Below, piece after piece: positions 1,299-23,343 of a stretch of DNA of 64,000 nucleotides; the stretch's first letter is position 1; every line of letters starts with the position of its first letter. The position numbers were made by a program, and so were the translations under genes. Source of the DNA: Candidatus Omnitrophota bacterium (lineage in GTDB: Bacteria; Omnitrophota; Gorgyraeia; Zapsychrales; JAHFFX01); NCBI GenBank assembly GCA_023247725.1, contig JAHFFW010000004.1, positions 19,921-83,920 of the forward strand. The letters are read 5' to 3'. The notes under the pieces are model-generated. The model ran no database searches, was not told the origin of the DNA, and worked only from the letters and a program-made list of their open reading frames with translations.

Positions 1299-2270
1299 AT
1301 GGCGGAAAAATTATTAACCCATTCGCTTAAAAAAGATTTATTGGCCCAGATGATCCGCATCCGCCAGCTCGAGGAAAAGATTGTGGAGGTTTACGGCGAA
1401 GGCCACATGCGCACGCCTTCGCACCTTTCGATCGGACAGGAGGCCGTATCCGTTGGGGTTTGCCAGGTGCTCAAAGAGGGTGATCAAATCTTTGCATCCC
1501 ACCGCTGTCATGCGGCGTTTTTGGCCAGGGGCGGAACGACCGAAAGTTTTTTTGCCGAATTATGCGGCCGAGCCGCCGGCAGCAATAACGGTCGCGGCGG
1601 TTCGGCCCATTTGGCCTTTGCTTCGGGGGGAATGTATGCATCTCCTATTCTGGGCGCGATGATTCCCGTCGCTGTCGGCGCGGCTTTGGCTGCGGCCATG
1701 GATCACTCGAAACAGATCTCGGTCGCCTTTTTAGGGGATGCGGCTATTGAAGAAGGCGTCTTTGCCGAAAGCCTCAATTTTGCCATCATCAAAAAGCTTC
1801 CTGTTTTCTTTGTCTGTGAAAACAATCTGTATTCGACCCATGCGCATATCCGCGACCGTCAACCGGCCTGCGCCATTTACCGTCGGGTGGCCGGGCAGGG
1901 GATTGCAACCAAACAGCTCGACGGCAATGATGTGGAAAAGGTTTATACCAGTGCGCTCGCCGCAATACAGGCCTGCCGCAGGGGCACGGGGCCGGTTTTT
2001 TTGGAATATCTGACCTATCGCTATCGGGAGCACGTTGGTCCTTTGTATGATTACGACAAGGGGTACCGCACGAAAAAGGAAGTGGAGGCTTGGCAAAAAA
2101 AATGCCCGATTGAAGCTTATCGAAAAAAATTGATTAGACAGAAAATATCGACGGAACAAGAATTTATCAGACTACAACAACAATTTTCACAAGAAGCCGA
2201 ACGAGCTTATCGGAAGGCCTTAGAAAGTCCATTCCCCGAGCCGGCCACCCTTTTGGATCACGTTTATTAG
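1299..2270 (+). CDS. ThDP-dependent 2-oxoacid dehydrogenase E1 alpha-subunit homolog (PDH/acetoin-DH E1-alpha-like)
   Basis: SIGQEAVSVG and FLGDAAIEEG (GDG ThDP-binding) motifs. The track ORF begins at 1239, but the ATG at 1299 lies just after the upstream stop. Confidence 0.8.
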   Translation: MAEKLLTHSLKKDLLAQMIRIRQLEEKIVEVYGEGHMRTPSHLSIGQEAVSVGVCQVLKEGDQIFASHRCHAAFLARGGTTESFFAELCGRAAGSNNGRGGSAHLAFASGGMYASPILGAMIPVAVGAALAAAMDHSKQISVAFLGDAAIEEGVFAESLNFAIIKKLPVFFVCENNLYSTHAHIRDRQPACAIYRRVAGQGIATKQLDGNDVEKVYTSALAAIQACRRGTGPVFLEYLTYRYREHVGPLYDYDKGYRTKKEVEAWQKKCPIEAYRKKLIRQKISTEQEFIRLQQQFSQEAERAYRKALESPFPEPATLLDHVY

Positions 2271-2278
2271 GAACACGA

Positions 2279-3058
2279 ATGCCCCAAGCCCCCCAAATTG
2301 AATGGCACGAACAATGGAGCCTGTTCAGAAAGCCAGAGATTCCTTTCCTTTTTGAGGAATGGATTTTTCCTAATAAACTGGAGGATTTTAGGGGTAAATC
2401 GGTTTTGGAATGCGGCTGCGGGGGAGGACAACACACCGCCTTAATGGCTCCGTTTGCCAATAAAATCGTCGCGGTTGATCTCAATACGATCGATCTGGCC
2501 AAAGATCTCAATCGTGATGCCCAGAATATAGTTTTTCGGCAAGAAAATATCCTGGATATGAATTTAGGCGAAGAGTTTGACATTGTGCTTTCGATCGGTG
2601 TGATCCACCACACGGATCATCCGGAAAAAGCCGTTGAAAACCTAAAAAGGCACCTTTCCAGAGGCGGCAGGATTATATTGTGGGTTTATAGTCAAAAGGG
2701 AAACTTCCTGATGAAGCATTTGGTTGAACCAGCGAGAAGGCTTATCTTTAAAAAATTAAGTCGGAGAAACCTAAAATTTTTTTCCCAAGGGATCACCTTA
2801 CTACTGTATGTGCCGGTTTATTCCCTTTATCTTTTCCCTTTGCCTTTCTTGCCTTATTTTGGATATTTTAAAAATTTTAGAAGATTACCTTTTTATCGTA
2901 ATACCTTGAACATTTTTGATAAACTCAATGCGCCTCAGGTCGATTTTATTAGCAAGAAGCGAATTCAAACATGGTTTAGTGAAGCCGAATTTAAAGATAT
3001 CCATGTGAGTCCTTATGTTGGCGTCAGCTGGAGAATCAGCGCCACCAGAAAAATTTAA
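2279..3058 (+). CDS. Class I SAM-dependent methyltransferase
   Basis: VLECGCGGG glycine-rich SAM motif I followed by acidic motif II (VAVDL); hydrophobic C-terminus. Confidence 0.75.
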   Translation: MPQAPQIEWHEQWSLFRKPEIPFLFEEWIFPNKLEDFRGKSVLECGCGGGQHTALMAPFANKIVAVDLNTIDLAKDLNRDAQNIVFRQENILDMNLGEEFDIVLSIGVIHHTDHPEKAVENLKRHLSRGGRIILWVYSQKGNFLMKHLVEPARRLIFKKLSRRNLKFFSQGITLLLYVPVYSLYLFPLPFLPYFGYFKNFRRLPFYRNTLNIFDKLNAPQVDFISKKRIQTWFSEAEFKDIHVSPYVGVSWRISATRKI

Positions 3059-5823
3059 TGTCCGTCCTCATTCACTCCTATTACGGCAAATTCAAATCTT
3101 CATCCAGCCTAAAATCCTGCCTGTTTATTCTGTTGTCAGCGACGGTGTCTTATGTGGTGATGGGCTTTGTCTATCCTGAGCTTTTGTTTCGGCATGAATT
3201 GAGTTTCCTTTGGCAAAACGACGGCGGCATTCTCAAGGAGAGCCTTTTCACGTTCGTGTCTAATGCTCTTCACGGCGGTGTTCAGCTGTGGAATCGCTAC
3301 GATGAGATGAATTATGCCTATCTGTATCTCAGTCATGGAATTCAAACACTGGTCAACATCTTGACGGGTTGGACGTACCTATTGTTGTCGCCTTTTTTCG
3401 CCGAGCCGGGAAAGGCCCTGCATATTTTTTATTGCAGCGTTTTTCATTTCTTTCTCATCCTGATTCGGACTGCCGGCGGGTATCTGCTGCTGAGAAAATT
3501 TCGTTGCCATCCTTTGGTGATCTTTGTATCCTTGCTCATCCTCAATACCCTTTTGACCAGCCATATGTACGTGGGCTACACCCCGTCTAATCTATACAGT
3601 TATTTTTTGCTGCTGGCTTATTTTCTGTTGCGCTTCTTTGACCGTTTTCATTTGAAAGATTTCTTATGTTCCTTGCTGGTGATGGCGATGGCTTGCGCCA
3701 ATTCTTTATTATTGGCCTTAGGGTATTTTTATCAGGTCGTGCATTTTTTTATGGTTGGATGTTTTGTATTCAATTTTGGCCAGTTCAAGGCCACCATGAG
3801 CAAATTCAAACAGGGTTTCACCCAATCCAACTTATGGCGGGTCCTGGGCGTCCTGTCGGTGTGCATTCTTCTCACGCTGCCTTGTTTATACTTGGCCCGG
3901 TCTTTAAAAAAGGATTTTTACATTCCGAATTCCGGACTGGGGGATACCAAAGGGAGGATGAAGATGGGATTGAATCCTTTGGAATATTTTAAGCCCGCCG
4001 GGAAATCCTTTGCCAATCCCTGGGACTGGCCGGTTAAAGCCGTGGATTTTGAACACAACGACTGGGCGGGGTCCTGGTTATTTCTGGGGGCCAGTGTGTT
4101 ATGGTTTTCCTTGATCGGTCTTGTCTTCTCAAAACATCGGGAAAAACATATCTTTCTTTGGTCCGCGATTGGTATTCTCTCGGTGAATTTTCCGCAAGAC
4201 CCCCATTCATTTTTTTCCCTTGGCCATTGGCTCAACGCCTTAACGAATCCTTTTCGGTTTTTGCTGCGAAGTTTTCACATGTCGAGTTTACTCATGCCCT
4301 TGTTGTTCTTTCCGTTGGTCGCCTTCGGATTACAGGCCTTAAAGGAATTACTGAGTCAAAATTCTGAATCAACTTATGCGGATCGGGTTCCGGTCGCCAT
4401 GGTCACTGTCATGGCGATCGTCGTTGCCTTTAGCTTTTTGCTCCCCTTTACCGCAAAGGTCCATACGATCCTGAGCGGAATCATCTTCTTGGCGATCTTG
4501 GTCTTCATCCACCATCGACCCCTGATCACGGCGCAAAAGCCATTTTTAAAAATTTTAAACACGAATCTGATTTTGGTTTTTTTGATTATCTCGACGGTCG
4601 CAGTGGACTTAAAGGCCCTTTGTATTTATATGCACCAGGAGTATTATCAAGGCCGAACGTTAACCCCTATGCATTACGTCGGTTTAGATGATCCCGACCC
4701 CGTTCTCCTGGAATACCAAAATCCGTTCCTCTTGCCGTTCCGGGAGTATTATTCCTTCAGCAAAAAAGACGTGAAGCCCTTTGCCATCTTTCAAATAGGA
4801 AATCTTTTTTACCAAGAGCATTCCGCAAAGGGCCTGGTCGCCTATGGGCTTTTGATCGGTTGTCCGGGACTTTTTTTCCAGTACACGCCCTTGGAAAGAT
4901 ATACCCGCACGGTTATGATTTATAACCCCTTTCATTGGTCTTACCGAAATATTTATGATGATCCCGAAATCGAAGAATACCTCGCTCGGGATAAACGATT
5001 CCTGTATCTAGCCGATTATGCCATCGATGCTGAACATGGTAGCCTCGGTGAAATCCTGAATCGGAATTTGGATAGAAAGGTGATCCTGGTCGAAGGCCAG
5101 GGGGGGGAACGATGGGTCAAGCATTTGCAAAACCTGGCCGATTTAAGTCAAAACATGTTGAAGGGTCCGGAAGAAGAACCGGTTTATCGGTCCTGGGAGT
5201 TTCCTTTTTCGCCATCCCGCGTTCGGCAGCAGGGCGATTTTAAAAAATACATTTTTGACCTGCCAAAGGATTTTCCGTCGTACCTTTCGACCACTATTTT
5301 TACTGATGATCGGCTTAGCTGGCAGTTAAAGATCGGCGATCATGAACTCCTTCCCGTGCAAGGAAGTCTTAACCCTTGGACGTTCGATGTTCAAAATGTT
5401 CGGCAGGGCAAGCTAGCGATTCTTCTTCCTAAGGATTTTAATACTTCGGGGATAACCGCTATGCTGAAGGTCAAATTGCCAGAGGGAATATCTGATATTT
5501 GGCGCAATGCCTACGATGATTTTGGGTTCAACTACCGGGCGCCGCGTGACGGATGGTTGGTCGTGCATTATCCATTCGATTCTAAATGGAGTTTATCCGT
5601 CGATGGAAAACCCTCGCCAATTGCTAAAGTCAACGGGTACTTTATCGGGACCCCCCTCTCCAAAGGGGAACACAGAATTCTTTTGCGTTACTGGCCCGGT
5701 ACGCCTTTGCGGATCATGATTTTTATTTCGATCATCCTAACGGTCCTCGTCTTTTTTGGTTTGATCATTAAGGGGATTCGTTGGGAGAATGACTTGTTAA
5801 GGGAAGCCATTATCCGTCGATGA
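3058..5823 (+). CDS. YfhO-like / GT-C-like polytopic membrane glycosyltransferase candidate
   Basis: About 450 aa of multi-TM N-terminal region, a soluble domain and a C-terminal TM. The C-terminal segment (WLVVHYPFDSKWSLSVDGKPSPIAKVNGYFIGTPLSKGEHRILLRYWPG + TM) resembles the conserved YfhO C-terminus and that of ORF 25851. ATG overlaps the upstream stop (TAATG). Confidence 0.5.
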   Translation: MSVLIHSYYGKFKSSSSLKSCLFILLSATVSYVVMGFVYPELLFRHELSFLWQNDGGILKESLFTFVSNALHGGVQLWNRYDEMNYAYLYLSHGIQTLVNILTGWTYLLLSPFFAEPGKALHIFYCSVFHFFLILIRTAGGYLLLRKFRCHPLVIFVSLLILNTLLTSHMYVGYTPSNLYSYFLLLAYFLLRFFDRFHLKDFLCSLLVMAMACANSLLLALGYFYQVVHFFMVGCFVFNFGQFKATMSKFKQGFTQSNLWRVLGVLSVCILLTLPCLYLARSLKKDFYIPNSGLGDTKGRMKMGLNPLEYFKPAGKSFANPWDWPVKAVDFEHNDWAGSWLFLGASVLWFSLIGLVFSKHREKHIFLWSAIGILSVNFPQDPHSFFSLGHWLNALTNPFRFLLRSFHMSSLLMPLLFFPLVAFGLQALKELLSQNSESTYADRVPVAMVTVMAIVVAFSFLLPFTAKVHTILSGIIFLAILVFIHHRPLITAQKPFLKILNTNLILVFLIISTVAVDLKALCIYMHQEYYQGRTLTPMHYVGLDDPDPVLLEYQNPFLLPFREYYSFSKKDVKPFAIFQIGNLFYQEHSAKGLVAYGLLIGCPGLFFQYTPLERYTRTVMIYNPFHWSYRNIYDDPEIEEYLARDKRFLYLADYAIDAEHGSLGEILNRNLDRKVILVEGQGGERWVKHLQNLADLSQNMLKGPEEEPVYRSWEFPFSPSRVRQQGDFKKYIFDLPKDFPSYLSTTIFTDDRLSWQLKIGDHELLPVQGSLNPWTFDVQNVRQGKLAILLPKDFNTSGITAMLKVKLPEGISDIWRNAYDDFGFNYRAPRDGWLVVHYPFDSKWSLSVDGKPSPIAKVNGYFIGTPLSKGEHRILLRYWPGTPLRIMIFISIILTVLVFFGLIIKGIRWENDLLREAIIRR

Positions 5824-7223
5824 ATAGTTCTTACGATTACTGTGTAGTAGGCGCCGGACCCAGCGGATTAACCGCGGCCTACCAGTTGCTTAAGGCCGGA
5901 CATTCTGTGATTCTTTTGGAGCGGGACAGCCGAATCGGCGGCCTGGCCAAAAGTTATAACTATGACGGTCATGTTTTTGACACGGGACCGAAGCGTTTCC
6001 ATACCGAGGACCCCATCGTTCTTGATTTTATTAAGGAAATCATCCAGGATTCCGTCCTGCAGATTTCCCGCTCGACGGAGGTTTATTTCCTTAAGAAATA
6101 TTTCGAATGGCCTTTGAAAACCCGCGAGTTGTTCAAAATGCCCTGGCCGGTCATTGGGCGTTGCGCCGTTGATTTGATCAAAGCGAAAAAAATACAGGAT
6201 CCTCATTCCTTCCGGGAATTTATCATCTCCAAATATGGTCCAACTCTGTACGAAATCTTTTTCGCTCCTTACACGGGAAAGTTCCTGCGCTGGGATCCTA
6301 AGGATATTCATTCCGACTGGGCTTCGACGGGAATCAACCGGACGGTCATCGACAAACGGATCAAAACCAACACCTTATTGGATATTCTCAAGGTCCTCGT
6401 TTTGCCCGAGAAGGTCGACACGCATTTTCTTTATCCCATGCAAGGAGGATTCGGCGGGTTTTATGAGCGCCTGCTCGCGCGGTGTCAAGAGTATCCGCAG
6501 TTTTCGCTTTTGCTCAATAACTCCGTCGGCCAATTGACGAAGGAGGAGGAGAGCTTGGGCATTCGGACCAAAGACGGAAAATCCATTTCTTGCACTCACC
6601 TCATCTGGAGCGGAAACCTCAATTATTTGGCCAATCTTATTGCTTCGCAGCAGAATGTCCACTACCTCAATACGATTTTTTATAATTTGATCTGCCGTCA
6701 GGAGGGGATCAGTCATCAGCGTTCGCAGTGGATTTACGTCAGCCGCGGCGACAGCTTGATCAGCCGCATCACGTGTATGAAAGAATTTGCTCCCTACACC
6801 TGCAAAAATGGCTACTATAACGTGATCTGTGAATTGACCGATTCGCAGGCAAAACCTTTTTATTTTCTTAATCCCGAACGGTATAAAGACAAAATCCTGG
6901 AGGAACTCAAAGGCATGGCCTTCTTAAAAGATTCCCGGTTTGTTGAAGGCGTTCAGATCAATCCTGTCGTTGATACGTATCCGGTTTACCACCGTCACTA
7001 CACCCGGGATTTTGCCTCGATCGCCGGTCAGGTGAAGAAATTTTCTCCCCGGATTCATCTCTTAGGCCGTTGCGGGGCCTTCTGGTATAATAATTCCGAT
7101 CATTCCATTCGGTTTGCAATTGAGCTGACCCATAAATTGCTGGGCAAAAAAGAACAGGAATTTGCCTACCGGGATTATTTTGGCGGAACCAGCCTCCGCG
7201 CCGCTCATCCCCAAGGAGAATAA
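5820..7223 (+). CDS. FAD-dependent oxidoreductase, UDP-galactopyranose-mutase-like / amine-oxidase-like
   Basis: N-terminal YDYCVVGAGPSGLTAA dinucleotide-binding motif, IGGLAKSY and DTGPKRFHT motifs resembling Glf. Confidence 0.55.
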   Translation: MNSSYDYCVVGAGPSGLTAAYQLLKAGHSVILLERDSRIGGLAKSYNYDGHVFDTGPKRFHTEDPIVLDFIKEIIQDSVLQISRSTEVYFLKKYFEWPLKTRELFKMPWPVIGRCAVDLIKAKKIQDPHSFREFIISKYGPTLYEIFFAPYTGKFLRWDPKDIHSDWASTGINRTVIDKRIKTNTLLDILKVLVLPEKVDTHFLYPMQGGFGGFYERLLARCQEYPQFSLLLNNSVGQLTKEEESLGIRTKDGKSISCTHLIWSGNLNYLANLIASQQNVHYLNTIFYNLICRQEGISHQRSQWIYVSRGDSLISRITCMKEFAPYTCKNGYYNVICELTDSQAKPFYFLNPERYKDKILEELKGMAFLKDSRFVEGVQINPVVDTYPVYHRHYTRDFASIAGQVKKFSPRIHLLGRCGAFWYNNSDHSIRFAIELTHKLLGKKEQEFAYRDYFGGTSLRAAHPQGE

Positions 7224-7261
7224 TAATTGATAAGGTGGATGATTTCCTCAGCGTTTTGTAG

Positions 7262-7460
7262 TACATTGAAGTCAGCCCTTCGACTTCGCTCAGGGTTGAT
7301 GCTAATAGGGAAGTCGAAGCATCAACCCTTCGATGCTCCCTGGCCTGAAAGGCCGTCTCTCGCACCCCGGGGGTGAGAGACGGGCATAAAGATCCTCTCA
7401 CCCCCGGGGTGCGAGGGTGGGCTATCGCCGGTAACGGCGGGCCGGGGAAGCGTCAAGGCC
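7262..7460. repeat. Cluster of consecutive inverted repeats/hairpins in the intergenic region (possible structured RNA or REP-like element)
   Basis: GGGTTGATGCT-N15-AGCATCAACCC (perfect 11-bp arms), GGCCTGAAAGGCC, a CCGTCTCTCGCACCCCGGGGGTGAGAGACGG hairpin of about 15 bp, and CGCCGGTAACGGCG with a GTAA loop. The 19-nt core CTCGCACCCCGGGGGTGAG recurs as its reverse complement 17 nt downstream. Confidence 0.6.
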
Positions 7461-7482
7461 TTTATTCGTAAGGATCAGATCA

Positions 7483-8991
7483 ATGAACATTCTTTTTATT
7501 CAAAATAATGGGATCCAGGAATCCGTCGGCGTTGCCAATCTCTCCGGTATGCTCAAGGCTTATGGGCATAAAACCGATCTCTTATTGACCTCCCACACGC
7601 CCAATTTAGAGAAGGCGATTTCCGAATTTGGTCCGCATCTCATTGCCCTTTCCGGCTTGACGGGCGTCCATCATTCCCTGACCTCATTGGCCCAAAGAAT
7701 CAAAACGAAATTCCCCATTCCTGTCGTGATGGGGGGACCGCATCCAACTTACTCTCCGGAGGTCATTGAACACCCGGGCATTGATTTTATTTGCCGGGGA
7801 GAAGGCGAGCACGCGATGCTGGAATTGGCCAATAGCTTAGAAGCCGATCGCGATGTGACCAAAATCCAAAACCTTTGGGTCAAAACCAAGGAGGGAACGA
7901 TCCACAAAAATGACATGCGGGCTCCGGCTGTCTTGGATGAATTGCCTTTTTCCGACCGGGAGATGTATTACAAGTATCCTTTTTTGCGGGACGTGCCGAT
8001 GAAACGGTTCATCGCCAGCATGGGCTGTCCTTATCCTTGTACCTTTTGCCATGAACCGGTTATCCGCGGAATGTACCGCGGCAAAGGCAATTATGTCCGG
8101 CGCAAATCCGTGGCCCGCGCCATCGCTGAGATCAAATACATCCAGGACCGCTACCCTCTCAAACATGTGCATTTTTCCGACGATCTATTTTTTATCCGCA
8201 ATGCCTATGAATGGCTCGAAGAATTCGCCGAGGTTTATCCCAAAGAAATTGGCCTGCCCTTTTCCTGCAACATCCGTTATGATTCCGTCGTTGAGCACTC
8301 GGCGAATCTGCTCAAAAAAGCCGGCGCTTATGGCGTCGCCATCGGGCTCGAATCCGGCAGCGAACAACTGCGCCAGGTCGTCATTAAGAAAATGGTGAAG
8401 AATGAGCATATGGTCGAAGGGGCAAGATTGCTGCGGGAACGCGGCATTAAGATGCTCACGACCAATATGATTGGCCTGCCCGGAGAAACGCTGGATCAGG
8501 CCTTTGAAACGGTGGAGCTCAACATGAAGCTCAAATCGAACTTCACCCGGGCGAATACCTTTTTGCTTTTTCCAGGATTGCCCATGGTGGATTACGCCAT
8601 GCGCAATGGTTTTGTGGATCCCAACTTCGATATTCAAAAGCATGTGGCCGAGGCGACGGAGATTAACCTCAAGACCCCCTTTGCCAAGGAATTTCGTAAT
8701 CTCGCGTCCTTATTCTGGGTTTTTGTCAAATTCCCTCCCCCATTCATTCCGCTCTTTAAAAAAATCGTGCGCTGGCCGGATAATGTTTTCTTTCGCATGA
8801 TTGGCTCGATGAATATGATCCAGGAACTGTTGTTTTACCGGATCCGCCCCATTTCGGGATTCAAATTTTTTAAAAACACGGTCCTGATCTCCAAAGAGAT
8901 GACCTTGCGCAACATCCCCAGCTTGTTTAAGCCGAAGAAAATCTCGCCCGAAGAGAAACTTATTTTTGATAGCGACCGAGGATATTTATAG
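7483..8991 (+). CDS. B12-binding-domain radical SAM enzyme (class B radical SAM)
   Basis: N-terminal B12-binding-like domain (ILFIQNNGIQ...VVMGGPHPT) and CPYPCTFC CxxxCxxC radical SAM cluster motif. Confidence 0.8.
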   Translation: MNILFIQNNGIQESVGVANLSGMLKAYGHKTDLLLTSHTPNLEKAISEFGPHLIALSGLTGVHHSLTSLAQRIKTKFPIPVVMGGPHPTYSPEVIEHPGIDFICRGEGEHAMLELANSLEADRDVTKIQNLWVKTKEGTIHKNDMRAPAVLDELPFSDREMYYKYPFLRDVPMKRFIASMGCPYPCTFCHEPVIRGMYRGKGNYVRRKSVARAIAEIKYIQDRYPLKHVHFSDDLFFIRNAYEWLEEFAEVYPKEIGLPFSCNIRYDSVVEHSANLLKKAGAYGVAIGLESGSEQLRQVVIKKMVKNEHMVEGARLLRERGIKMLTTNMIGLPGETLDQAFETVELNMKLKSNFTRANTFLLFPGLPMVDYAMRNGFVDPNFDIQKHVAEATEINLKTPFAKEFRNLASLFWVFVKFPPPFIPLFKKIVRWPDNVFFRMIGSMNMIQELLFYRIRPISGFKFFKNTVLISKEMTLRNIPSLFKPKKISPEEKLIFDSDRGYL

Positions 8992-9036
8992 GTCTTGCTC
9001 ACGTTTTATCGATAACGAGCCTAAGCCGGCCGACCG

Positions 9037-12662: not shown

Positions 12663-12715
12663 AACCGGCGGTGGGATTCTTTTTCGATCAAGATTCGAAT
12701 CGGGAGGCATTTGAG

Positions 12716-13662: not shown

Positions 13663-13678
13663 ATAGGATCATTTTACC

Positions 13679-15586: not shown

Positions 15587-15603
15587 AAAATCCGGGAGGC
15601 TTT

Positions 15604-15963
15604 ATGAATCATCGATGGTCGGGATGGGTCGATTTTATGGCAAGATGTTTTATCATCGCGTTCATGGTTTATTTGGCCTTGTCCGCTTTTTTTATTTCGG
15701 ATTTTAAAAAGCTCTCCCGGCTTTTGGATTCGGTGGAAAAAGAAATGCAGACCTTCACTCAGCAGAACAAAATCTATTCGACCTTTTTTACCACTGGAAA
15801 TCCAGAAATCCTTTATGTCATTGCCTTGCAAGATGAACAGAACGGCGATCTCGGTGGGGCCGCAAAGAAACTGTTGACGGCCATTCAAGTTTCGGATTTG
15901 AACAGCCAAAAATACCGCGCGAAGCTACAGGCACTTCTGGGAAAGTCCGGGCAGAATCCCTAA
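15604..15963 (+). CDS. Hypothetical small membrane protein
   Basis: One hydrophobic helix (FIIAFMVYLALSAFFI); no recognisable motif. Confidence 0.4.
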   Translation: MNHRWSGWVDFMARCFIIAFMVYLALSAFFISDFKKLSRLLDSVEKEMQTFTQQNKIYSTFFTTGNPEILYVIALQDEQNGDLGGAAKKLLTAIQVSDLNSQKYRAKLQALLGKSGQNP

Positions 15964-15974
15964 GTCTTCATTCC

Positions 15975-16316
15975 ATGTCATCCAGTTATGACGCGGTGAT
16001 TTCTTCTCTGGTCAAGGGTTTGCTTGATGATCAGGCGAATCCGGTCCTTGTTGAGCAAACCGCCCAACAGATGAGGAAAACTGTTCGACACATGCCGAGG
16101 CATCTGTCCCTGCCCATTATTTTTCTAACCCTTTGTTTTGATTGGGCGGGAATCTTGCGTGGAGGTCGAATCTTTCGATGTCAATCCGCTGTTTCTCAGC
16201 GGGCACAGATTGAAGATTGGAAAAAAAGTTTTTTATCGCCTTGTCGGGAGTTGATCCGTTTTCATGAAAAAATGAGCGGATTTATCTATTACTCCTATTC
16301 CCCGACGAAGAATTGA
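15975..16316 (+). CDS. Hypothetical protein
   Basis: ORF of 113 aa in an operon gap upstream of the GMC oxidoreductase; no motif recognised. Confidence 0.35.
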   Translation: MSSSYDAVISSLVKGLLDDQANPVLVEQTAQQMRKTVRHMPRHLSLPIIFLTLCFDWAGILRGGRIFRCQSAVSQRAQIEDWKKSFLSPCRELIRFHEKMSGFIYYSYSPTKN

Positions 16317-16341
16317 AAATGGCTTAAGGCTCTTTATTCCC

Positions 16342-17784
16342 ATGCTGCAGAATCGTTTAGATTGTGAGGTGCTCGTCGTCGGTTCCGGACCCGGCGGGGC
16401 CAATACCGCCTATCTATTGGCGCAAGCGGGCAAGGATGTAATCCTTGCCGAAGAAGGGGAGAATTTGACGGTTGAGCAAACCCCGGCCTATTCGCTGGAA
16501 GAAATGAAATCAAAATACCGTCATGGCGGTATGACGGTGGCCTTGGGCAAACCGAGCGTAGCCTATCTCGAGGGCTGCTGTGTCGGCGGAGGCAGTGAGA
16601 TCAATGCCGGTTTATACCACTATCCTTCACCGGAAGTTTTAGAAGAGTGGGTTAAAGATTTTGCTATTCGTGATTTTGGATTTGGGAAGCTGGAGCCTTT
16701 TTTCAAATCCTGTGAGCAAGATATTTCGGTTTCTTCCATGCCTGGTCAGGTGGGCTCAGCCTCTTTGAAGCTGCAGGAAGGAGCCCGCAAGCTCAATTGG
16801 AAAACTGCACAGATCCCTCGCTGCTGGAAATATGAATGTTTATCCGACGGAACCTGGCATTCTTCCCGGCAGTCGATGACCGAAACCATCATCCCCAAGG
16901 CCTTGCGTCATGGCTGCCGATTGCTGACGCGAGCTAAGGTCAAAAGACTTTGTTTGAAAAATCATCGAGCCGATCACGCCTTGGTGAGTTCCGTTACGAA
17001 AGCTGGTGAACAAAGTTTGACCACGATTAATTTTCGCCAGGTTTTCGTCTGTGGGGGCGCCGTGCAAACTCCGGCCCTTTTGAGGCGCAGCGGAATTAAG
17101 AAGAATATTGGCAATTCGCTGCGGATGCACCCGGCCATCCGGATGGTGGCAAAATTTTCCGAAGCAGTCAACGAAGAGCAAGAAGGCGTTCCGGTCGTTC
17201 AGGTGGAAGAATTCAAACCCCGTTTGACCCTGGGTGGATCTTACAGCGCCCTACCGCATCTGGCGTTGTGGTTAGGTCCACAGCGCATACAGAAGCTTCT
17301 TCCGGTTTGGAAAAATTTGGCCATGTTTTATGCGCTCATTGTCGGTCAAGGAGCTGGAACCGTAAGAAATATTCCCTGGACGGATGAGCCCTGGGTTCGC
17401 ATGCCTCTGACCAGGACGGATGCCAGTTCTTTCCGGGAAGGTTTAGAACTCTTGGGCCGTTTGCTATTTGCCGCTGGAGCGACGGAAATATTTCCACCGA
17501 TGCAGGGGTTGGAAATCTTAAAAACCCCAGACGATTTAAAAATATTCTTGGGCAACTTATCTTTGAATAAAATGGATATCTCGACGATTCATTTATTTAG
17601 CAGCTGTCCGATGGGAGAAAAGACAGAACTCTGCGCCGTGGATTCCTACGGAAAATTGCATGGCTTTAAGAATATTTATCTTAATGACGCGAGCATTTTG
17701 CCCAGCGCCCCCAGGGTGAACCCCCAGGCGCTCATCATGGCGATTGCCCGGCGAAATACAGCGAAATTTTTAGAAAATATTTGA
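16342..17784 (+). CDS. GMC-family FAD-dependent oxidoreductase
   Basis: VLVVGSGPGGANTA FAD-binding motif; GMC-like C-terminal region (PQALIMAIARR). Confidence 0.75.
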   Translation: MLQNRLDCEVLVVGSGPGGANTAYLLAQAGKDVILAEEGENLTVEQTPAYSLEEMKSKYRHGGMTVALGKPSVAYLEGCCVGGGSEINAGLYHYPSPEVLEEWVKDFAIRDFGFGKLEPFFKSCEQDISVSSMPGQVGSASLKLQEGARKLNWKTAQIPRCWKYECLSDGTWHSSRQSMTETIIPKALRHGCRLLTRAKVKRLCLKNHRADHALVSSVTKAGEQSLTTINFRQVFVCGGAVQTPALLRRSGIKKNIGNSLRMHPAIRMVAKFSEAVNEEQEGVPVVQVEEFKPRLTLGGSYSALPHLALWLGPQRIQKLLPVWKNLAMFYALIVGQGAGTVRNIPWTDEPWVRMPLTRTDASSFREGLELLGRLLFAAGATEIFPPMQGLEILKTPDDLKIFLGNLSLNKMDISTIHLFSSCPMGEKTELCAVDSYGKLHGFKNIYLNDASILPSAPRVNPQALIMAIARRNTAKFLENI

Positions 17785-17793
17785 AGGGCTTCT

Positions 17794-17870: not shown

Positions 17871-18908
17871 ATGGCAAGTCGAATGATTAGCTACGCGCAG
17901 GCCATCTCGGAAGCCACGGTTCAAGCCATGGAGGCTGATCCGAATGTTTTTGTGTTCGGCCTGGGGGTGGATGATTTTAAAGGAATTTTTAACACCACCA
18001 GAGAAGCCTTTGCGAAGTTTGGATCCTCCCGCGTCGTCGGAACTCCCGCAAGTGAAAATGCATTAACCGGCATCGCCATTGGAGCGGCCTTAAATGGGAA
18101 AAGGCCGATTCTGGTTCACGCCCGCAATGACTTTATGTTTCTGGCGCTCGACCAGATGCTCAATAATGCGGCCAAATGGAAATATTCTTATGCCGGACAA
18201 TCGAGCGTTCCGATCGTCGTGCGCGGGATCATCGGCAAGGGCTGGGGGCAGGGACCGACGCATTCCCAGAGCATTCAATCCATCTTTGCGCATTTTCCGG
18301 GGCTTTATGTCGCCATGCCGTCGGGCGCGTATGTGGCCAAAGGATTGCTGATAAAAAGCCTGCAGATCGATACGCCGGTTGTGCTCCTCGAGCACCGGGC
18401 TCTTTATGATCTCAAGGAAGCAGTTCCGGAAAAATCCTACACTTTGGATTTTGGCAAGGCACGGGTTGTTCGCCTTGGGAGAGACATCACGATCGTTGCG
18501 ACATCCTTCATGGTTCCGGAGGCGGTTAAGGCGGCTGACATTCTTCAATCCCAAGGGATTGATCCGGAGATCATCGATCCGGTCAGTCTTAATCCGCTGG
18601 ATGAAGAAACCATTCTCAACTCAGTTGCTAAAACCGGACGGTTGCTGTGCGCCGACACGAGCTGGCGGCGTTGCGGCTTCGCCGCGGAAGTCGCGGCCAT
18701 CGTCGCCGAGAAAAGTTTTGGTTCGCTCAAGGGACCGGTCAAAAGGATCACCCTTGCGGATTGCCCGTGTCCGGTTTCACAAAAACTAGAAGCAGAATTC
18801 TATCCCAGCTTCCAAACGATCGTGAATTCGGTTTATGCCATGTTGGACCGAAAAGAAAAATTTCAAATGGAAAGTCCCAAAGCCGACGTGTTTATTGGAC
18901 CCTATTGA
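17871..18908 (+). CDS. ThDP-dependent 2-oxoacid dehydrogenase E1 beta-subunit homolog (transketolase-like pyrimidine-binding and C-terminal domains)
   Basis: MEADPNVFVFGLGVDD, GIAIGAALNGKRP, typical PDH-E1-beta layout; about 345 aa. Confidence 0.85.
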   Translation: MASRMISYAQAISEATVQAMEADPNVFVFGLGVDDFKGIFNTTREAFAKFGSSRVVGTPASENALTGIAIGAALNGKRPILVHARNDFMFLALDQMLNNAAKWKYSYAGQSSVPIVVRGIIGKGWGQGPTHSQSIQSIFAHFPGLYVAMPSGAYVAKGLLIKSLQIDTPVVLLEHRALYDLKEAVPEKSYTLDFGKARVVRLGRDITIVATSFMVPEAVKAADILQSQGIDPEIIDPVSLNPLDEETILNSVAKTGRLLCADTSWRRCGFAAEVAAIVAEKSFGSLKGPVKRITLADCPCPVSQKLEAEFYPSFQTIVNSVYAMLDRKEKFQMESPKADVFIGPY

Positions 18909-18947: not shown

Positions 18948-19625
18948 ATGCCTAAGCGTCCATTGACTCAAAAGGAGGCTTATAAAGCGGGAACAGACCA
19001 CCAGTTTGTTGACTCCATTGAGCTGGGTCCATGGACATCGTACAGTCTTTTGCATGACCCCAAACATATGTGCTTTGCCCTGTCCCGGTACAAATTTTGT
19101 GCAAAGGTATTGGAGGGAAAGGCCAACGTTCTGGAGGTGGGCTGCGGGGATGCCTTTGGGATTCCCATCGTGGCCCAGGCGGTGCAGCGGGTGGTGGCGG
19201 TGGACCCGGAGGACCGGCTGATCCGTTCCAATAAAAAAAGATTGAGGGGCATAAAGAACATTGAATTTCAAAGGCTTGATATCTGTGAAGAAGTTCCTAA
19301 AGAAATTTTTGCTGCTACGTTTTCCGTGGACGTCATTGAGCATCTGGATGCTCATTTGAACGGTGCTTTTATGCGCCATCAGTGTGAGTGTCTGCATCCC
19401 GACGGCATTTGCATCGTGGGGACCCCCAACATCACCGCCGGAAAATATGCCACGCCCCGCAGTCGGATCGAACACATCAATCTCAAAAGTCATGAGGCCC
19501 TGCGCGAGCAGATGGGAACATACTTTAAGAATGTCTTTATGTTTTCCATGAATGATGAAGTCGTGCATACCGGATTTGCGCCCATGGCGCATTATCTCTT
19601 TGGTGTCGGGATGGGTCTGAAATGA
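18948..19625 (+). CDS. Class I SAM-dependent methyltransferase (paralog A)
   Basis: VLEVGCGDAFG motif I; about 60% identical by eye to the ORF at 23346. Confidence 0.7.
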   Translation: MPKRPLTQKEAYKAGTDHQFVDSIELGPWTSYSLLHDPKHMCFALSRYKFCAKVLEGKANVLEVGCGDAFGIPIVAQAVQRVVAVDPEDRLIRSNKKRLRGIKNIEFQRLDICEEVPKEIFAATFSVDVIEHLDAHLNGAFMRHQCECLHPDGICIVGTPNITAGKYATPRSRIEHINLKSHEALREQMGTYFKNVFMFSMNDEVVHTGFAPMAHYLFGVGMGLK

Positions 19626-20833
19626 AAAGCCAGACCAAGGCAGAATACAAAGTTGTGGCCAGGCGCGAATCCTGCGCAATCTGTCATTCGTCGGACCTTG
19701 CGGTTTTGCTGGATCATCCCGGGCTCCCTTTGACGGGAATTTTTTCCCAGAAACCGATGGAGGAACAGCCCAGCGGCATCGACCAGCAATTCCTATTTTG
19801 TTCAGCCTGCGGCCATGGGCAATTGGCCTTTGCCGTGGATCCATCCCACCTTTATGACGAGACTTATATTTTTCGCACCTCCTTAAGTGCCACGGCCCGG
19901 GCCGGGACAGATTTTTTTCTGAATTTTTTGAAATCCATCCGGCCGCAATTGGATTTTCAATGCGCCCTCGATATCGGGTGCAATGACCTGTATTTGTTAA
20001 AACAATTGCAGGATAAAGTCCCAATCCGCGTCGGGATCGATCCCATGTGGGCGGCGCAGCCCCTTCCGGATCACACCGAAGGGATTGGGCTCATCGGCGG
20101 GACGCTAGAGGAAGCCGATGTGATGGGGGCCACTCACCGACGGCCTGACCTCGTGGTCTGCCGTCACACCCTCGAACATATTTTTGATCCCCGGCAAATG
20201 CTGGAAAAACTCGTCTCCATAACCTCCGATCAAACCCTTTTTGTTTTTGAATTGCCGGGATTGGACACGCTCATGGAGCGTTCGCGATTTGACCAGATTT
20301 TTCACCAGCATTTGCAATATTTCTCTTTGCACTCGCTTTGCGGGCTGATGCGGCTGTTCAATTTGCATCTGATCGATTACCAAATCCATTATCATGACTG
20401 GGGAGCCATGGCGGTGGCCTTTTCCAAACAAGGACGATCTGCCAGGGAACAAGATCCCCCTTTTCGGTTCGATATCCGCGTCATGAAGGATCGGTTTAAA
20501 ATTTTTCAGCAGCATCTGCAACGCGTGGGCCGGATTCTCGATTCCTTTAAGGATTCGGTGATCTATGGGTATGGGGCCTCTGCCATGTTGCCGATCCTCG
20601 CTTACCATATGCAGCACGATCTCGGTCTTTTGCAGGCTGTCCTTGATGATGATATCCGTCGGGCTGGACTTTATTATGCGAATCTACCGCTCAGGATTCA
20701 CCACCCCAGCGAAGTCAAAAATTTCACTGAAACCAATATTTTTCTAACCGCCGTTGATTCGGTGGAGCCGATTTTGACGAAGTTAATGGCCAGCCGGCCC
20801 AAAAATATTATCTTTCCTTTGGAGGCGATGTGA
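19622..20833 (+). CDS. NDP-sugar C-methyltransferase, TcaB9/TylCIII-like, with N-terminal zinc-ribbon domain
   Basis: CAICHS...CSACGHG four-Cys N-terminal domain, DIGCNDLYLL methyltransferase motif, C-terminal extension typical of this C-methyltransferase family. Confidence 0.65.
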   Translation: MKSQTKAEYKVVARRESCAICHSSDLAVLLDHPGLPLTGIFSQKPMEEQPSGIDQQFLFCSACGHGQLAFAVDPSHLYDETYIFRTSLSATARAGTDFFLNFLKSIRPQLDFQCALDIGCNDLYLLKQLQDKVPIRVGIDPMWAAQPLPDHTEGIGLIGGTLEEADVMGATHRRPDLVVCRHTLEHIFDPRQMLEKLVSITSDQTLFVFELPGLDTLMERSRFDQIFHQHLQYFSLHSLCGLMRLFNLHLIDYQIHYHDWGAMAVAFSKQGRSAREQDPPFRFDIRVMKDRFKIFQQHLQRVGRILDSFKDSVIYGYGASAMLPILAYHMQHDLGLLQAVLDDDIRRAGLYYANLPLRIHHPSEVKNFTETNIFLTAVDSVEPILTKLMASRPKNIIFPLEAM

Positions 20834-21612
20834 TGGAATTGGGTATCCGCGGAAAAAAGGCTCTCGTGACCGGATCCGGGCGTGGCATCGGTCAGGCCAT
20901 TGCCTTGGCGCTGGCTCAGGAAGGCGCCAAGGTTGCGGTTGTGGCCCGCACAAAGAATGACATTGACCGGCTCATGCAACAGATGGCAGGAGGTAAGACC
21001 GGTCATTGTGGTGTGAGTTTGGATCTGACGGTCGAAGGTGCACCGAAAAAGTTGGTCCAGGTTTTGAAAACAAGGGATTTTCCTTCCTTTGATATCGTCG
21101 TACATAACCTGGGAAGTGCTCTCGACATTCGCGATCCATTCTGTTCGCTGGACCAATGGCGGCAGGTCATGCGGATCAATTTTGAAATCGCCGTGGAATT
21201 GAATCTTTTGTTAATCCCGGCCATGCAGAAAAAAAGGTGGGGACGGGTCGTCCATATTTCGTCCATTGCGGCCATGGAAAATCAGGGGCCGGTGACGTAT
21301 TGCGCGGCCAAGGCGGCCTTGACGGCTTACACGCGCAGTATGGGTGGTGTTGTTGCTCCCGACGGGGTTGTGATGTCCGCGGTTTTGCCCGGGGCTGTCT
21401 TTACGGAAAAAGGTTATTGGGATATCGCCTCCCGAACGAATCCGAACCATGTGAGAAAATTCCTCACTGAACGCCAGCGCATTGGGCGCTTTGGCGAGCC
21501 GCAGGAGATTGCCCATTTTGTCACCTTTTTGTGTTCGGACTTGGCCTCCTTCAACACCGGGGCGATTGTTCCCGTCGATGGGGGACAGGGGAGAGGTTAT
21601 TTTGGGCAATAG
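20830..21612 (+). CDS. SDR-family oxidoreductase
   Basis: ALVTGSGRGIGQAIA, YCAAK motifs. Confidence 0.8.
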   Translation: MMELGIRGKKALVTGSGRGIGQAIALALAQEGAKVAVVARTKNDIDRLMQQMAGGKTGHCGVSLDLTVEGAPKKLVQVLKTRDFPSFDIVVHNLGSALDIRDPFCSLDQWRQVMRINFEIAVELNLLLIPAMQKKRWGRVVHISSIAAMENQGPVTYCAAKAALTAYTRSMGGVVAPDGVVMSAVLPGAVFTEKGYWDIASRTNPNHVRKFLTERQRIGRFGEPQEIAHFVTFLCSDLASFNTGAIVPVDGGQGRGYFGQ

Positions 21613-22414
21613 GGTTGTTCCACCAAAAGAGGAATGGCAAATCCATAACGCGTATCGCCGCCGGATCGTGGACATGGTCTGCGAAGGAAAGGATGGCCAT
21701 ATCCCGAGCGCCTTCTCCATTATTGATATCATCGCCGTCCTTTATCAATATTATTTAAAATTTGATGCGAAGAATCCCGCCTGGGAAAAGCGGGATTATT
21801 TCATTTTGAGCAAGGGCCACGGGTGCCTGGCCCTTTACGTTGTCTTGAAAGAACATGGCTTTTTGACCGAAAACGATTTGAATGGATTCTGCCAGCCCGA
21901 CGGAATTTTGGGCGAACACCCCGATGCAACGAAGGTTCCGGGAGTGGAGCTCTCCACCGGTTCGCTGGGCCATGGCTTTTCCATGGCGGTGGGAATGGCC
22001 TTAGGTTTACGCATCCAAAATAGGAATAACCGGTTGTTTGTTTTGGTCGGCGACGGGGAATGTCACGAAGGAACCGTGTGGGAAGCGGCGAATGTCGCCA
22101 ATAATTTGCAGCTGGGAAATCTTTGTGTCGTCGTCGACTGGAATGGTTCGGCCGCACAACTCATGCCGCGCGATGATCTGCCGGCCAAATGGAAGGCCTT
22201 CGGCTGGGAAACCCACGTCATCGACGGCCATTCCGTGACCGAATTACGCCAGGCCTTGGACCGAATTGCTTTTAAAAGTGTGGGAACCCCGACCGTGATT
22301 GTCGCTAAGACGATCAAAGGAAAAGGCGTTCCCTTGTTAGAAGGTCACGGGACCTGGCATCACCGGATTCCTAAACCCGACGAGTACAAGATCATCATGG
22401 AGGCCTTGGCGTGA
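21602..22414 (+). CDS. Transketolase N-terminal (ThDP-binding) subunit of a split transketolase
   Basis: SKGHGCLALY, GSLGHGFSMAVGMA, VGDGECHEGTVWEA (GDG ThDP motif). No in-frame ATG near the 5' end. The TTG at 21602 preceded by GGGAGAGG is proposed; the track ORF starts at 21482 inside the SDR. Confidence 0.75.
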   Translation: MGNRVVPPKEEWQIHNAYRRRIVDMVCEGKDGHIPSAFSIIDIIAVLYQYYLKFDAKNPAWEKRDYFILSKGHGCLALYVVLKEHGFLTENDLNGFCQPDGILGEHPDATKVPGVELSTGSLGHGFSMAVGMALGLRIQNRNNRLFVLVGDGECHEGTVWEAANVANNLQLGNLCVVVDWNGSAAQLMPRDDLPAKWKAFGWETHVIDGHSVTELRQALDRIAFKSVGTPTVIVAKTIKGKGVPLLEGHGTWHHRIPKPDEYKIIMEALA

Positions 22415-23343
22415 GCGCCTCACCCATTCGTGATCAATTCGCCCAAACGATGCTGGAGGTCGGAGCCGCTGATTCGGATCTTGTGGTTTTGGTGGGTGAC
22501 ATCAGCCATTTCAAATTGCAGCCTTTTGCGCAAGCGTGCCCCGGGCGGTTTTATAACATCGGAATTTGTGAACCCACCATGGTCAGCATGGCCGCGGGCC
22601 TGGCCAAGGTCGGGCTTATTCCGGTCGCTCATACCATTGCCCCTTTTTTGTTGGAACGTTCCTTTGAGCAGATCAAACTGGATTTTGGGTATCACCAATT
22701 GGGAGGAAACCTCATCACCGTCGGAAGCGCCTTTGATTATGCGAATCTGGGATGCACCCATCACTGCTACGATGATTTTGCCTTACTGGGAAATCTTCCC
22801 GGAACCCAACTTTTTTATCCGGGAAGCGCTGTGGAATTTGATACCCTTTTTCGCCAAGTCTATCGCAGGGGCCGTCTCAATCTTTTTCGTCTTCCGGCCA
22901 TCGCGCATCAACAAACCTGGAACAACGATGACATTATCCCGGGAAAGGCCATCCTGGTTCAGGAGGGAAGTGATTTGACGATTATCACCACCGGCCCTCA
23001 TCTGACAACGGCCTTGGCTGCGCAAGATGAGTTGCGCCAAAAGGGATTTCATCCCGAAATCATTTATATTCACACCATCGTTCCTCTTGACCGGGATCAA
23101 TTGTTAGCCAGCGTGCAAAAGACGCGCCGCATTCTCGTCGTGGAGGAACACGTCTTTCATGGCGGGTTGTCCAGTCGGGTGTTGGAACTGGTCCGCGGCA
23201 TTCGGGATTTACAATTTTCAAGTTTATGTCTGTCCAACGAATTTGCCACCCACTATGGTTCGTACGAGGATCAATGCCGGCGCGTTGGTCTGACGAAGGA
23301 AGGGATCCTTCGTCATGTCTTGGAAAAATTTTCTAAAAACTAG
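22411..23343 (+). CDS. Transketolase C-terminal (pyrimidine-binding) subunit
   Basis: VGDISHFKL, GICEPTMVSMAAGLA motifs; the start overlaps the stop of the N-terminal subunit gene. Confidence 0.8.
   Translation: MSASPIRDQFAQTMLEVGAADSDLVVLVGDISHFKLQPFAQACPGRFYNIGICEPTMVSMAAGLAKVGLIPVAHTIAPFLLERSFEQIKLDFGYHQLGGNLITVGSAFDYANLGCTHHCYDDFALLGNLPGTQLFYPGSAVEFDTLFRQVYRRGRLNLFRLPAIAHQQTWNNDDIIPGKAILVQEGSDLTIITTGPHLTTALAAQDELRQKGFHPEIIYIHTIVPLDRDQLLASVQKTRRILVVEEHVFHGGLSSRVLELVRGIRDLQFSSLCLSNEFATHYGSYEDQCRRVGLTKEGILRHVLEKFSKN

Follow-up and report, generated by a model that had tools for sequence, protein, structure and literature searches.

Two thiamine enzyme pairs in an Omnitrophota envelope glycan locus: probable carbon branching of activated keto-sugars

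Two thiamine (ThDP) enzyme pairs, an E1-alpha/E1-beta pair and a split transketolase, are encoded in one cell-surface glycan locus of about 38 kb in an Omnitrophota-like bacterium; the most likely role of both is to introduce branches into the carbon skeleton of activated keto-sugars. We consider it probable, from gene context and known precedents, that they function as two stand-alone ThDP carboligases in an envelope glycan pathway, independently of E2 and E3. The DNA analysed (the window) is a stretch of 64,000 nt, positions 19,921-83,920 of the forward strand of contig JAHFFW010000004.1 (Candidatus Omnitrophota bacterium, GCA_023247725.1).

All four genes are intact and lie on the + strand, as do the other genes described here; their presence had been stated in the first-pass annotation of the window. 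The E1-alpha-like subunit (323 aa; 1299..2270; Pfam E1_dh, E 4e-61), whose start at 1299 agrees with the gene-caller product P0001, is preceded by a Zn-dependent alcohol dehydrogenase (Zn-ADH, 345 aa; 250..1287; Pfam ADH_N + ADH_zinc_N). Its stop (2270) is separated from the start of the E1-beta-like subunit (345 aa; 17871..18908; Pfam Transket_pyr, E 1e-25, and Transketolase_C, E 6e-36) by 15,600 nt and exactly 12 ORFs, in agreement with the earlier estimate of about 16 kb and about a dozen genes. This block (2279..17784; Pfam, NCBIfam) encodes a methyltransferase, a 921-aa YfhO-like GT-C, an FAD oxidoreductase, two B12-radical-SAM enzymes, three SDRs, an AsnB-like amidotransferase, two small proteins and a GMC oxidoreductase. 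E1-beta is followed by a class I SAM methyltransferase (225 aa; 18948..19625; Pfam Methyltransf_23/25/11), a TylC3/TcaB9-like sugar C-methyltransferase (403 aa; 19622..20833), a classical SDR (260 aa; 20830..21612; Pfam adh_short) and the split transketolase, which begins 2.7 kb after E1-beta (about 3 kb in the earlier description). The ORF of the N-terminal, ThDP-binding subunit (TK-N; 21578..22414; Pfam Transketolase_N, E 1e-43) opens at 21482, the likely start being ATG 21578 or TTG 21602, and its stop is overlapped by the GTG start of the C-terminal subunit (TK-C, Pyr + C domain; 22411..23343; Pfam Transket_pyr + Transketolase_C). Further downstream are a NodS-like SAM methyltransferase (230 aa; 23346..24038; Pfam), a four-gene delivery unit (24035..27974) and an NDP-sugar 4,6-dehydratase-like extended SDR (330 aa; 29798..30790). 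The window has no nucleotidyltransferase gene that would point to the activated-sugar substrate. AMP-ligase and FemAB/GNAT-like genes are also present in the window.

Both E1-like subunits possess the domains, the ThDP-Mg motif and the catalytic Glu and His of the 2-oxoacid dehydrogenase E1 family (PDH, BCKDH, acetoin DH). Neither reaches the curated NCBIfam cut-off for PDH: E1-alpha scored 279 bits against TIGR03182 (cut-off 393.85) and E1-beta 293.6 bits against NF006667 (cut-off 321). Among solved structures, E1-alpha is best matched by human PDH E1-alpha (E 4e-41), and it conserves both the ThDP-Mg residues (GD..NN) and the counterpart of human His263. E1-beta carries a C-terminal extension of ~25 aa, and 33/33 family members retain its ThDP-activating Glu and the counterpart of His128. 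Since the His residues used for lipoyl acylation in PDH E1 are retained, the sequence alone is compatible with an E2 partner. E1-beta appears to be the cognate partner of E1-alpha: the two subunits have the same nearest relatives, and their identities to the window copies are correlated over 37 loci (r = 0.91).

The earlier statement that no lipoyl-E2 or E3 gene is present proved correct for the window, where Pfam detected no such domain among the 48 largest + strand ORFs and no E2, E3 or lipoyl motif occurred in any of the six frames. Neither E2 nor E3 adjoined the genes in 11 Pfam-annotated neighbourhoods of relatives or, by motif, in 80 loci. A single match to the E2-like motif DHRxxDG, in locus L046, lay inside a 23-codon fragment and was discarded as a chance match.

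TK-N matched the split transketolase of Carboxydothermus hydrogenoformans (6yak) with E 2e-66, and TK-C matched 6yaj with E 2e-35. The catalytic equipment of transketolase (EC 2.2.1.1) is present and invariant, comprising the ThDP/Mg motif and the equivalents of E. coli His26, His66, His100, His261, His473 and Glu411; within TK-N neither the GDG..N motif nor the catalytic His residues varied (alignment A1), and TK-C keeps the ThDP Glu. The set of residues binding substrate and phosphate (Arg358, Ser385, His461, Arg520, Asp469) has been retained only in the equivalent of Arg358. At the other positions TK-C has Phe for Ser385, Gly for His461, Leu for Asp469 and Ala for Arg520 (E. coli numbering), all four being substrate-binding positions in canonical transketolase (PMC4601599). 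The substrate pocket of TK-C appears, from these replacements, to be remodelled. Gly occupies the His461 position in 46/46 module members and Leu the Asp469 position in 44/46; together with the motif LGCTHHCY these changes give the clade a sequence signature. TK-N homologues with 70-77% identity occur in many phyla, and the clade ranges over many bacterial phyla and some archaeal MAGs. More distant TK pairs with the same changed His and Asp positions directly follow a GDP-mannose 4,6-dehydratase gene, lying between it and NDP-sugar reductase genes, and no heptose genes were seen among the neighbours scanned. A tblastn search with TK-N against 72,556 plasmids returned only ordinary transketolases of <45% identity, and no cultured carrier was found there.

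The gene set recurs as a conserved module. There were 49 genome loci with a TK-N at least 50% identical to that of the window, and 32 of these had at least 8 kb of upstream sequence. In 25 of the 32, both E1-alpha and E1-beta were found within 10 kb of the close TK homologue, accompanied by the SDR (25 loci), the 4,6-dehydratase-like enzyme (21), the C-methyltransferase (20) and the ADH (19). In the control, ordinary split-TK loci, the count was 0/18 for each of the E1 pair, SDR, C-methyltransferase, dehydratase-like enzyme and ADH. Matching gene order was found in Pfam-annotated neighbourhoods of Omnitrophota, Planctomycetota, Schekmanbacteria and two complete or near-complete genomes, and the module extends to reduced genomes, a Woesearchaeota MAG among them. 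The description of the ThDP genes as a dispersed set holds for the window but reflects only a local insertion: alpha and beta are adjacent in 23/25 relatives carrying both, and only two genes separate them in L091. The compact, adjacent arrangement is the ancestral one, and the 15.6 kb gap is a lineage-specific insertion. The separation results from insertion of a gene block in the Omnitrophota-like lineage and is not a sign of unrelated subunits. HldE-like and GmhA-like genes occur in many relatives (heptose-gene linkage in 19/49 loci); the window itself has no heptose genes.

The tailoring genes are similarly conserved. The C-methyltransferase had been called TcaB9-like, and this assignment is upheld by matches over residues 16-272 to the D-mycarose 3-C-methyltransferase 4rv9 (E 7e-21) and to TcaB9 (E 1e-13); its N-terminal Zn domain and its class I methyltransferase domain are homologous to those of solved TylC3/TcaB9 family members. 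Its score against Pfam Methyltransf_13 (29.9 bits) is just under the cut-off, its C-terminal part has no Pfam Methyltransf_14 match, and the PDB alignments end at residue ~270. The 4,6-dehydratase-like SDR, presumed to be the source of the 4-keto acceptor, scored 213 bits against TIGR01181 (dTDP-glucose 4,6-dehydratase), below the cut-off of 365; homologues with 58-64% identity adjoin E1-alpha/beta in relatives. Homologues of the classical SDR (46-70% identity) are directly upstream of TK-N in 25/32 module loci, and those of the Zn-ADH (40-50% identity) are found in 19/32. The class I SAM methyltransferase (18948-19625) also has homologues in module loci (45-67% identity), and NodS-like methyltransferase homologues come after TK-C in relatives.

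Among known systems, the closest in gene content are AviB1/AviB2 (avilamycin), Pau11/Pau12 (paulomycin), the aldgamycin pair and KbDH-alpha/beta (kibdelomycin), which, as here, are separate E1-alpha and E1-beta genes without E2/E3 in sugar-tailoring clusters, alongside 4,6-dehydratase, C-methyltransferase and ketoreductase genes. These enzymes attach acetyl branches to keto-sugars (PMC4753412; PMC12247030), and for the window the same chemistry is predicted, with pyruvate donating an acetyl unit to a keto-sugar. The E1 pair likewise stands among putative NDP-keto-sugar tailoring genes without E2/E3, with companions in 20-25/32 loci. The E1-type branchers described so far come from secondary-metabolite clusters (2025 review, PMC12247030), those of the AviB1/B2 type from actinomycete antibiotic clusters, whereas the pair studied here is found, in Omnitrophota and many other largely uncultured phyla, within an envelope glycan locus that includes GT2/GT-C delivery, is combined with a split transketolase and has its subunits 15.6 kb apart. 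The split transketolase resembles those of miharamycin and amipurimycin in gene context, with split N and C subunits beside an oxidoreductase in a sugar-tailoring cluster. The first-pass annotation had taken both enzyme types to be known sugar branchers. This is correct for E1-type AviB1/AviB2, but for the split transketolases of miharamycin and amipurimycin hydroxyacetyl branching has been proposed, not demonstrated, and their substrates have not been shown to be NDP-sugars (PMC12247030). The same 2025 review lists 13 putative sugar-branching split transketolases, in Streptomycetes only and none characterised, whereas the clade in the window spans many phyla with high conservation and defined pocket substitutions. 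Canonical split transketolase (C. hydrogenoformans) and the PDH/BCKDH E1 heterotetramers share folds, ThDP/Mg motifs and catalytic His and Glu with the enzymes of the window, and differ from them in the four TK-C residues, the equivalog scores, the E1-beta extension, the association with E2/E3 and a wholly different gene context. YerE and YerE-like enzymes are single-chain ThDP flavoenzymes of the decarboxylase/ALS superfamily, acting in the synthesis of yersiniose and related LPS sugars. They equip an NDP-4-keto sugar of a Gram-negative surface glycan with a branch of two or more carbons, the task proposed here, but belong to a different ThDP superfamily. Relatives often have such a YerE/ALS-type protein as their third ThDP enzyme (594-606 aa in L002, L003 and L005); the window does not. 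Literature searches on split transketolases of O-antigen or deoxysugar clusters, and on heptose combined with ThDP branching, found nothing relevant, and the published accounts examined gave no support for E1 or TK genes in the O-antigen region of Coxiella burnetii.

Gene context and precedent, on which all steps are based, suggest the following route. The 4,6-dehydratase-like enzyme would turn a nucleotide-activated hexose or heptose into a 4-keto-6-deoxy sugar, and the carbon beside the ketone would be C-methylated by the TylC3/TcaB9-like enzyme. The alpha2beta2 E1 would decarboxylate pyruvate, and the hydroxyethylidene-ThDP carbanion would attack a sugar carbonyl instead of a lipoyl group, yielding a C-acetyl branch on a tertiary alcohol that could be reduced to hydroxyethyl by an SDR or ADH. 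In the SDR-TK-N-TK-C unit a second keto function would be made or used, and the transketolase would transfer hydroxyacetyl (glycolaldehyde), with hydroxypyruvate or a ketose as donor. The sugar may be decorated further by class I and B12-radical-SAM methyltransferases; short GT2 enzymes would then load it on polyprenyl phosphate, and YfhO-like GT-C would attach it outside the membrane. In its full form we advance this scheme tentatively: the window may hold a rearranged copy of an undescribed, widespread pathway in which two or three classes of ThDP carboligase furnish envelope glycans with a C-methylated heptose or hexose bearing several C-branches (hydroxyacetyl together with acetyl or hydroxyethyl), the TK clade having exchanged phosphosugar binding for an NDP-keto-sugar acceptor. 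The product had earlier been described as a heavily branched deoxysugar. The branching context is supported, but "deoxysugar" may mean a modified heptose: given the NDP-heptose genes of many relatives, a heptose may take the place of a hexose as substrate.

C-branched sugars are rare, and few of their biosynthetic enzymes are known. In many phyla, mostly uncultured ones, the module unites E1-type and TK-type enzymes within surface-glycan loci; if the proposal is true, transketolase-type sugar branching would for the first time be found outside the antibiotic clusters of Streptomyces, and in many phyla. Unusual, undescribed envelope sugars are predicted in Omnitrophota and other lineages, and the module offers testable candidates for new biocatalysts forming tertiary alcohols. 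Annotation pipelines probably mislabel its genes as part of core metabolism, e.g. 'pyruvate dehydrogenase E1' and 'transketolase', which would distort metabolic reconstructions from MAGs.

The retained catalytic residues, including the His of lipoyl acylation, and the fact that the closest solved structures are a true PDH E1 and a true split transketolase would fit housekeeping roles, the E1 pair serving PDH, BCKDH or acetoin dehydrogenase with E2/E3 encoded elsewhere (the search covered the 64-kb window and related loci only) and the split transketolase acting in the pentose phosphate pathway. We regard this as highly improbable in view of the E1 scores under the curated cut-offs, the absence of E2, E3 and lipoyl motifs from the window and the 80 loci, the loss from TK-C of all but Arg358 of the substrate-binding set, the linkage to sugar-tailoring genes kept across many phyla as against 0/18 ordinary split-TK loci, and the presence of the module in reduced genomes. 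Sugar chemistry had already been favoured over a dehydrogenase complex, and the sub-cut-off scores, the conserved module and the TK-C replacements lend this view support. The same replacements make it very unlikely that the transketolase supplies sedoheptulose-7-phosphate to a linked NDP-heptose pathway, with the E1 pair providing a small acetoin- or lactyl-like group (an acyloin or acyl substituent) for later attachment to the glycan. HldE-like and GmhA-like genes beside the module and the AMP-ligase and FemAB/GNAT-like genes of the window would accord with such a scheme, but it needs phosphosugar binding, the window is without heptose genes, and the distant pairs of the clade are linked to GDP-mannose dehydratase instead.

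Less improbable, though still unlikely, is chain extension in place of ring branching. Here the acceptor of the carbanions would be a terminal aldehyde (e.g. a C6/C7 dialdose formed by ADH, SDR or GMC oxidase), giving 8-10-carbon sugars, or the enzymes would act on polyprenyl-phosphate-linked sugars. The frequent Zn-ADH, the GMC and FAD oxidoreductases of the window, the heptose-gene linkage and the abundance of GT2/GT-C units are consistent with this possibility. On the other hand, the co-conserved C-methyltransferase and 4,6-dehydratase indicate an intermediate with a keto group at ring position 4, and all known E1-type precedents add to ring ketones.

Many GT2/GT-C units are present in the locus. 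The delivery unit downstream of the NodS-like gene (Pfam, NCBIfam, TM prediction) encodes a short GT2 resembling polyprenyl-phosphate glycosyltransferases, two membrane proteins of 171 and 188 aa and a 707-aa YfhO-like GT-C, and the order of its four genes recurs in L002, L003, L091 and L092.

Nearly all sizeable ORFs of the window are on the + strand. Positions ~250 to ~37,800 form a single long glycan-type locus, followed by housekeeping genes (GlgP, ThyA, FolA, GlgB and others). The thiamine diphosphate (ThDP) enzymes listed in the first-pass annotation were confirmed by Pfam matches: E1-alpha at 1299-2270 (+; E1_dh, E 4e-61), E1-beta at 17871-18908 (+; Transket_pyr and Transketolase_C), and a split transketolase (TK) with an N subunit, TK-N, from 21578 (or 21602) to 22414 (+; Transketolase_N, E 1e-43) and a C subunit, TK-C, at 22411-23343 (+), the GTG start of which overlaps the TK-N stop. 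The sugar C-methyltransferase at 19622-20833 (+), annotated as TcaB9-like, did match TcaB9 (E 1e-13) and is a homologue of the solved MtmC/TylC3-type protein 4rv9 (E 7e-21). A 4,6-dehydratase-like gene at 29798-30790 (+) scored 213 bits to dTDP-glucose 4,6-dehydratase, below the cut-off. The named relatives of E1-alpha are Candidatus Omnitrophica MAGs. Neither a Pfam scan of the window's 48 largest ORFs nor a six-frame motif scan of the window detected E2, E3 or lipoyl domains, which bears out their claimed absence.

Both E1 subunits keep the fold and the catalytic residues, namely the ThDP-Mg Asp/Asn, a His in alpha that corresponds to His263 of the human enzyme, and the Glu and His of beta. 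Their scores were 279 (alpha) and 294 bits (beta) versus curated NCBI cut-offs for PDH of 394 and 321 bits, respectively. Because identity to the window's alpha subunit correlated with identity to its beta subunit (r = 0.91, 37 related loci) and the two genes were neighbours in 23 of 25 loci, the window's E1-alpha and E1-beta form a cognate pair and are not two orphans. The C-termini of the E1-beta family run ~25 residues beyond the end of Geobacillus stearothermophilus E1-beta, whose C-terminus we take to be part of the E2-binding site.

In the window the "about a dozen" genes reported between alpha and beta are exactly 12 ORFs, covering 15.6 kb. This separation is real, but the dispersal of the ThDP set is secondary, the operon being compact in relatives. 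Since alpha is directly beside beta in the related loci L002, L003 and L092, and only two genes (SDR and methyltransferase) away from it in L091, the arrangement in the window reflects an insertion specific to this lineage, in an operon whose ancestral form was compact. Upstream of the window the contig has the conserved operon start, with radical-SAM and GT9-like genes and those for an epimerase and a methyltransferase; the ADH and E1-alpha come next. The GC content drops to 0.43 at 2001-4000 (methyltransferase and start of a 921-aa YfhO-like gene) versus 0.47-0.52 in the neighbouring segments, as could be expected if part of the inserted block were of foreign origin. The block holds two B12-binding radical-SAM enzymes (7483-8991 and 9037-11076), which may methylate unactivated sugar carbons; for the latter, the closest family is that of the KedN5-type C-methyltransferases, at 168 bits and thus far below the cut-off. 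It also encodes an AsnB-like glutamine amidotransferase (13679-15586), for which the best model was the XrtA/PEP-CTERM-system amidotransferase (522 bits versus a cut-off of 817), a match suggestive of a glycan with a carboxamide group.

Scanning the TK-N alignment against one genome per species yielded 80 loci. In 49 of these TK-N was at least 50% identical to that of the window, and in the other 31, which represent ordinary split transketolases, the identity was 40-47%. Neighbourhoods were counted in those 32 high-identity loci whose upstream sequence reached 8 kb or more, and compared with 18 low-identity loci. E1-alpha and E1-beta were present in 25/32 high-identity loci, an SDR immediately 5' of TK-N in 25/32, a dTDP-glucose-4,6-dehydratase-like gene in 21/32, a C-methyltransferase in 20/32 and a Zn-ADH in 19/32, whereas each of these was found in 0/18 low-identity loci. 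The usual order of the module is dehydratase/epimerase, E1-alpha, E1-beta, (epimerase), C-methyltransferase, SDR, TK-N, TK-C, methyltransferase, and from E1-beta onward the window matches it exactly. TK-N homologues with 70-77% identity occur in widely different phyla; the bacterial carriers include Planctomycetota, Omnitrophota, Desulfobacterota, Chloroflexota, Nitrospirota, Nitrospinota, several Proteobacteria, Chlamydiota, Verrucomicrobiota and Campylobacterota, and the archaeal carriers are two MAGs. E2 and E3 were not seen in 11 Pfam-annotated neighbourhoods, and no E3 or lipoyl motif was found in the 80 loci. The lone E2-like motif match among them was discarded, as it sits in a 23-codon fragment.

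Two of the nearest Omnitrophota relatives, L091 and L092, have two split-TK pairs (2072-3834 and 16803-18716 in L091; 704-2458 and 13659-15381 in L092) together with an E1 pair in one locus, and L002, L003 and L005 additionally have an ALS/YerE-type ThDP enzyme. Taken together, up to three classes of ThDP carboligase are therefore possible per glycan locus.

TK-N retains the ThDP/Mg motif and the catalytic histidines. When TK-C was aligned with human TK and the split TK of Carboxydothermus (residues numbered as in E. coli/human), Arg358/318, the ThDP-activating Glu and His473 were found to be retained. His461/416 is replaced by Gly in 46/46 module members and Asp469/424 by Leu in 44/46; Ser385/345 is changed to Phe or Gly, and Arg520/474 to a residue that is not basic, which according to HMMER alignments is Ala in the window. 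A new motif, LGCTHHCY, is conserved in the clade. From the structures of the enzymes from yeast, E. coli and human, we assign the replaced positions to phosphate and C2-hydroxyl binding. They belong to the recognised substrate-binding residues of transketolase (PMC4601599). Because these residues are replaced, the pocket as predicted from sequence argues against a pentose-phosphate role and also against supply of sedoheptulose-7-phosphate.

Gly and Leu at His461 and Asp469 were also found in remoter TK pairs, L059 (Patescibacteria), L066 (Bacteriovoracaceae), L060 and L067, near which there is no E1. In L059 a bona fide GDP-mannose 4,6-dehydratase (493 bits) is directly 5' of the TK pair; in both L059 and L066 two NDP-sugar epimerase/reductases lie 3' of it, with glycosyltransferases next in L059. 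These neighbours are the clearest contextual evidence that the TK clade acts on an NDP-4-keto-6-deoxy sugar. A third split-TK group, from Sphaerochaeta and related bacteria (L073, L077, L079, L080, L083, L084 and L089), has Ser/Leu at the two positions and no sugar-nucleotide genes nearby, and may use yet another non-canonical substrate.

The comparative context thus supports the original proposal that these enzymes serve sugar branching and not a dehydrogenase complex. We consider it fairly probable that the E1 pair would add an acetyl branch, independently of E2, and the TK pair a hydroxyacetyl branch, both to NDP-keto-sugars. Some E1-type pairs, among them AviB1/B2, Pau11/12, the pair from aldgamycin and KbDH-alpha/beta, have been proposed or shown to furnish keto-sugars with an acetyl branch derived from pyruvate, and YerE-type enzymes perform acetyl branching in LPS sugars (PMC4753412; PMC12247030); KbDH-alpha/beta was tested in vitro (PMC12247030). 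Hydroxyacetyl transfer by split-gene TKs has only been proposed, for miharamycin and amipurimycin biosynthesis, and the 13 putative split-TK branchers from bioinformatics are all from Streptomycetes, none of them characterised (PMC12247030). The module would work like these systems. It differs in uniting the E1 with the TK type (in L005 also with the YerE/ALS type), in sitting in envelope-glycan loci instead of antibiotic clusters, in its spread over many phyla, and in the defined set of pocket changes that marks its TK clade. 'PDH E1' and 'transketolase' labels in MAGs should accordingly be read as core metabolism only with caution.

Of the deoxysugar product suggested at first, the sugar chemistry stands on the comparative context, and the substrate can be refined. 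No nucleotidyltransferase gene was found in the window. HldE-like genes (kinase and nucleotidyltransferase) occur in 19/49 and GmhA-like isomerases in 12/49 module loci, versus 0/31 ordinary-TK loci for both, and shortly before the window begins there is a GT9 (heptosyltransferase)-like gene; for these reasons the acceptor in many carriers may be a nucleotide-activated heptose.

The TK genes are followed 3' by a short GT2 resembling polyprenyl-phosphate glycosyltransferases (PpgS, ArnC), a pair of small membrane proteins and a YfhO-like protein of 707 aa, for which 11 TM segments were predicted. This order is kept in Omnitrophota relatives. The two small proteins (171 and 188 aa) have no family match and are conserved in these relatives. 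With this unit (24035-27974), the locus has three units of GT2 plus large polytopic membrane protein, YfhO-like or without Pfam match (the others at 30804-33652 and 33588-35989), as well as the 921-aa YfhO-like protein (cf. 3058-5823). By analogy, the delivery unit would provide lipid-linked export and extracytoplasmic transfer, and we liken it, presumptively, to CsbB/GtrB + YfhO or ArnT systems. The repetition suggests that several lipid-linked, extracytoplasmic glycosylation systems exist in parallel.

Beyond the glycan locus, 38918-50394 carries a glycogen/alpha-glucan gene set (GlgP-like phosphorylase, GlgB, a GH57 protein with DUF3536 and a GH77 4-alpha-glucanotransferase), with thyA-folA and the gene of an EAL response regulator lying between its members. 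At 60314-62551 a PNP/MTAP-like phosphorylase adjoins an IF-2B-family (MtnA-like) gene, which suggests a methionine-salvage pair; such a pair would be relevant to a locus rich in SAM-dependent enzymes.
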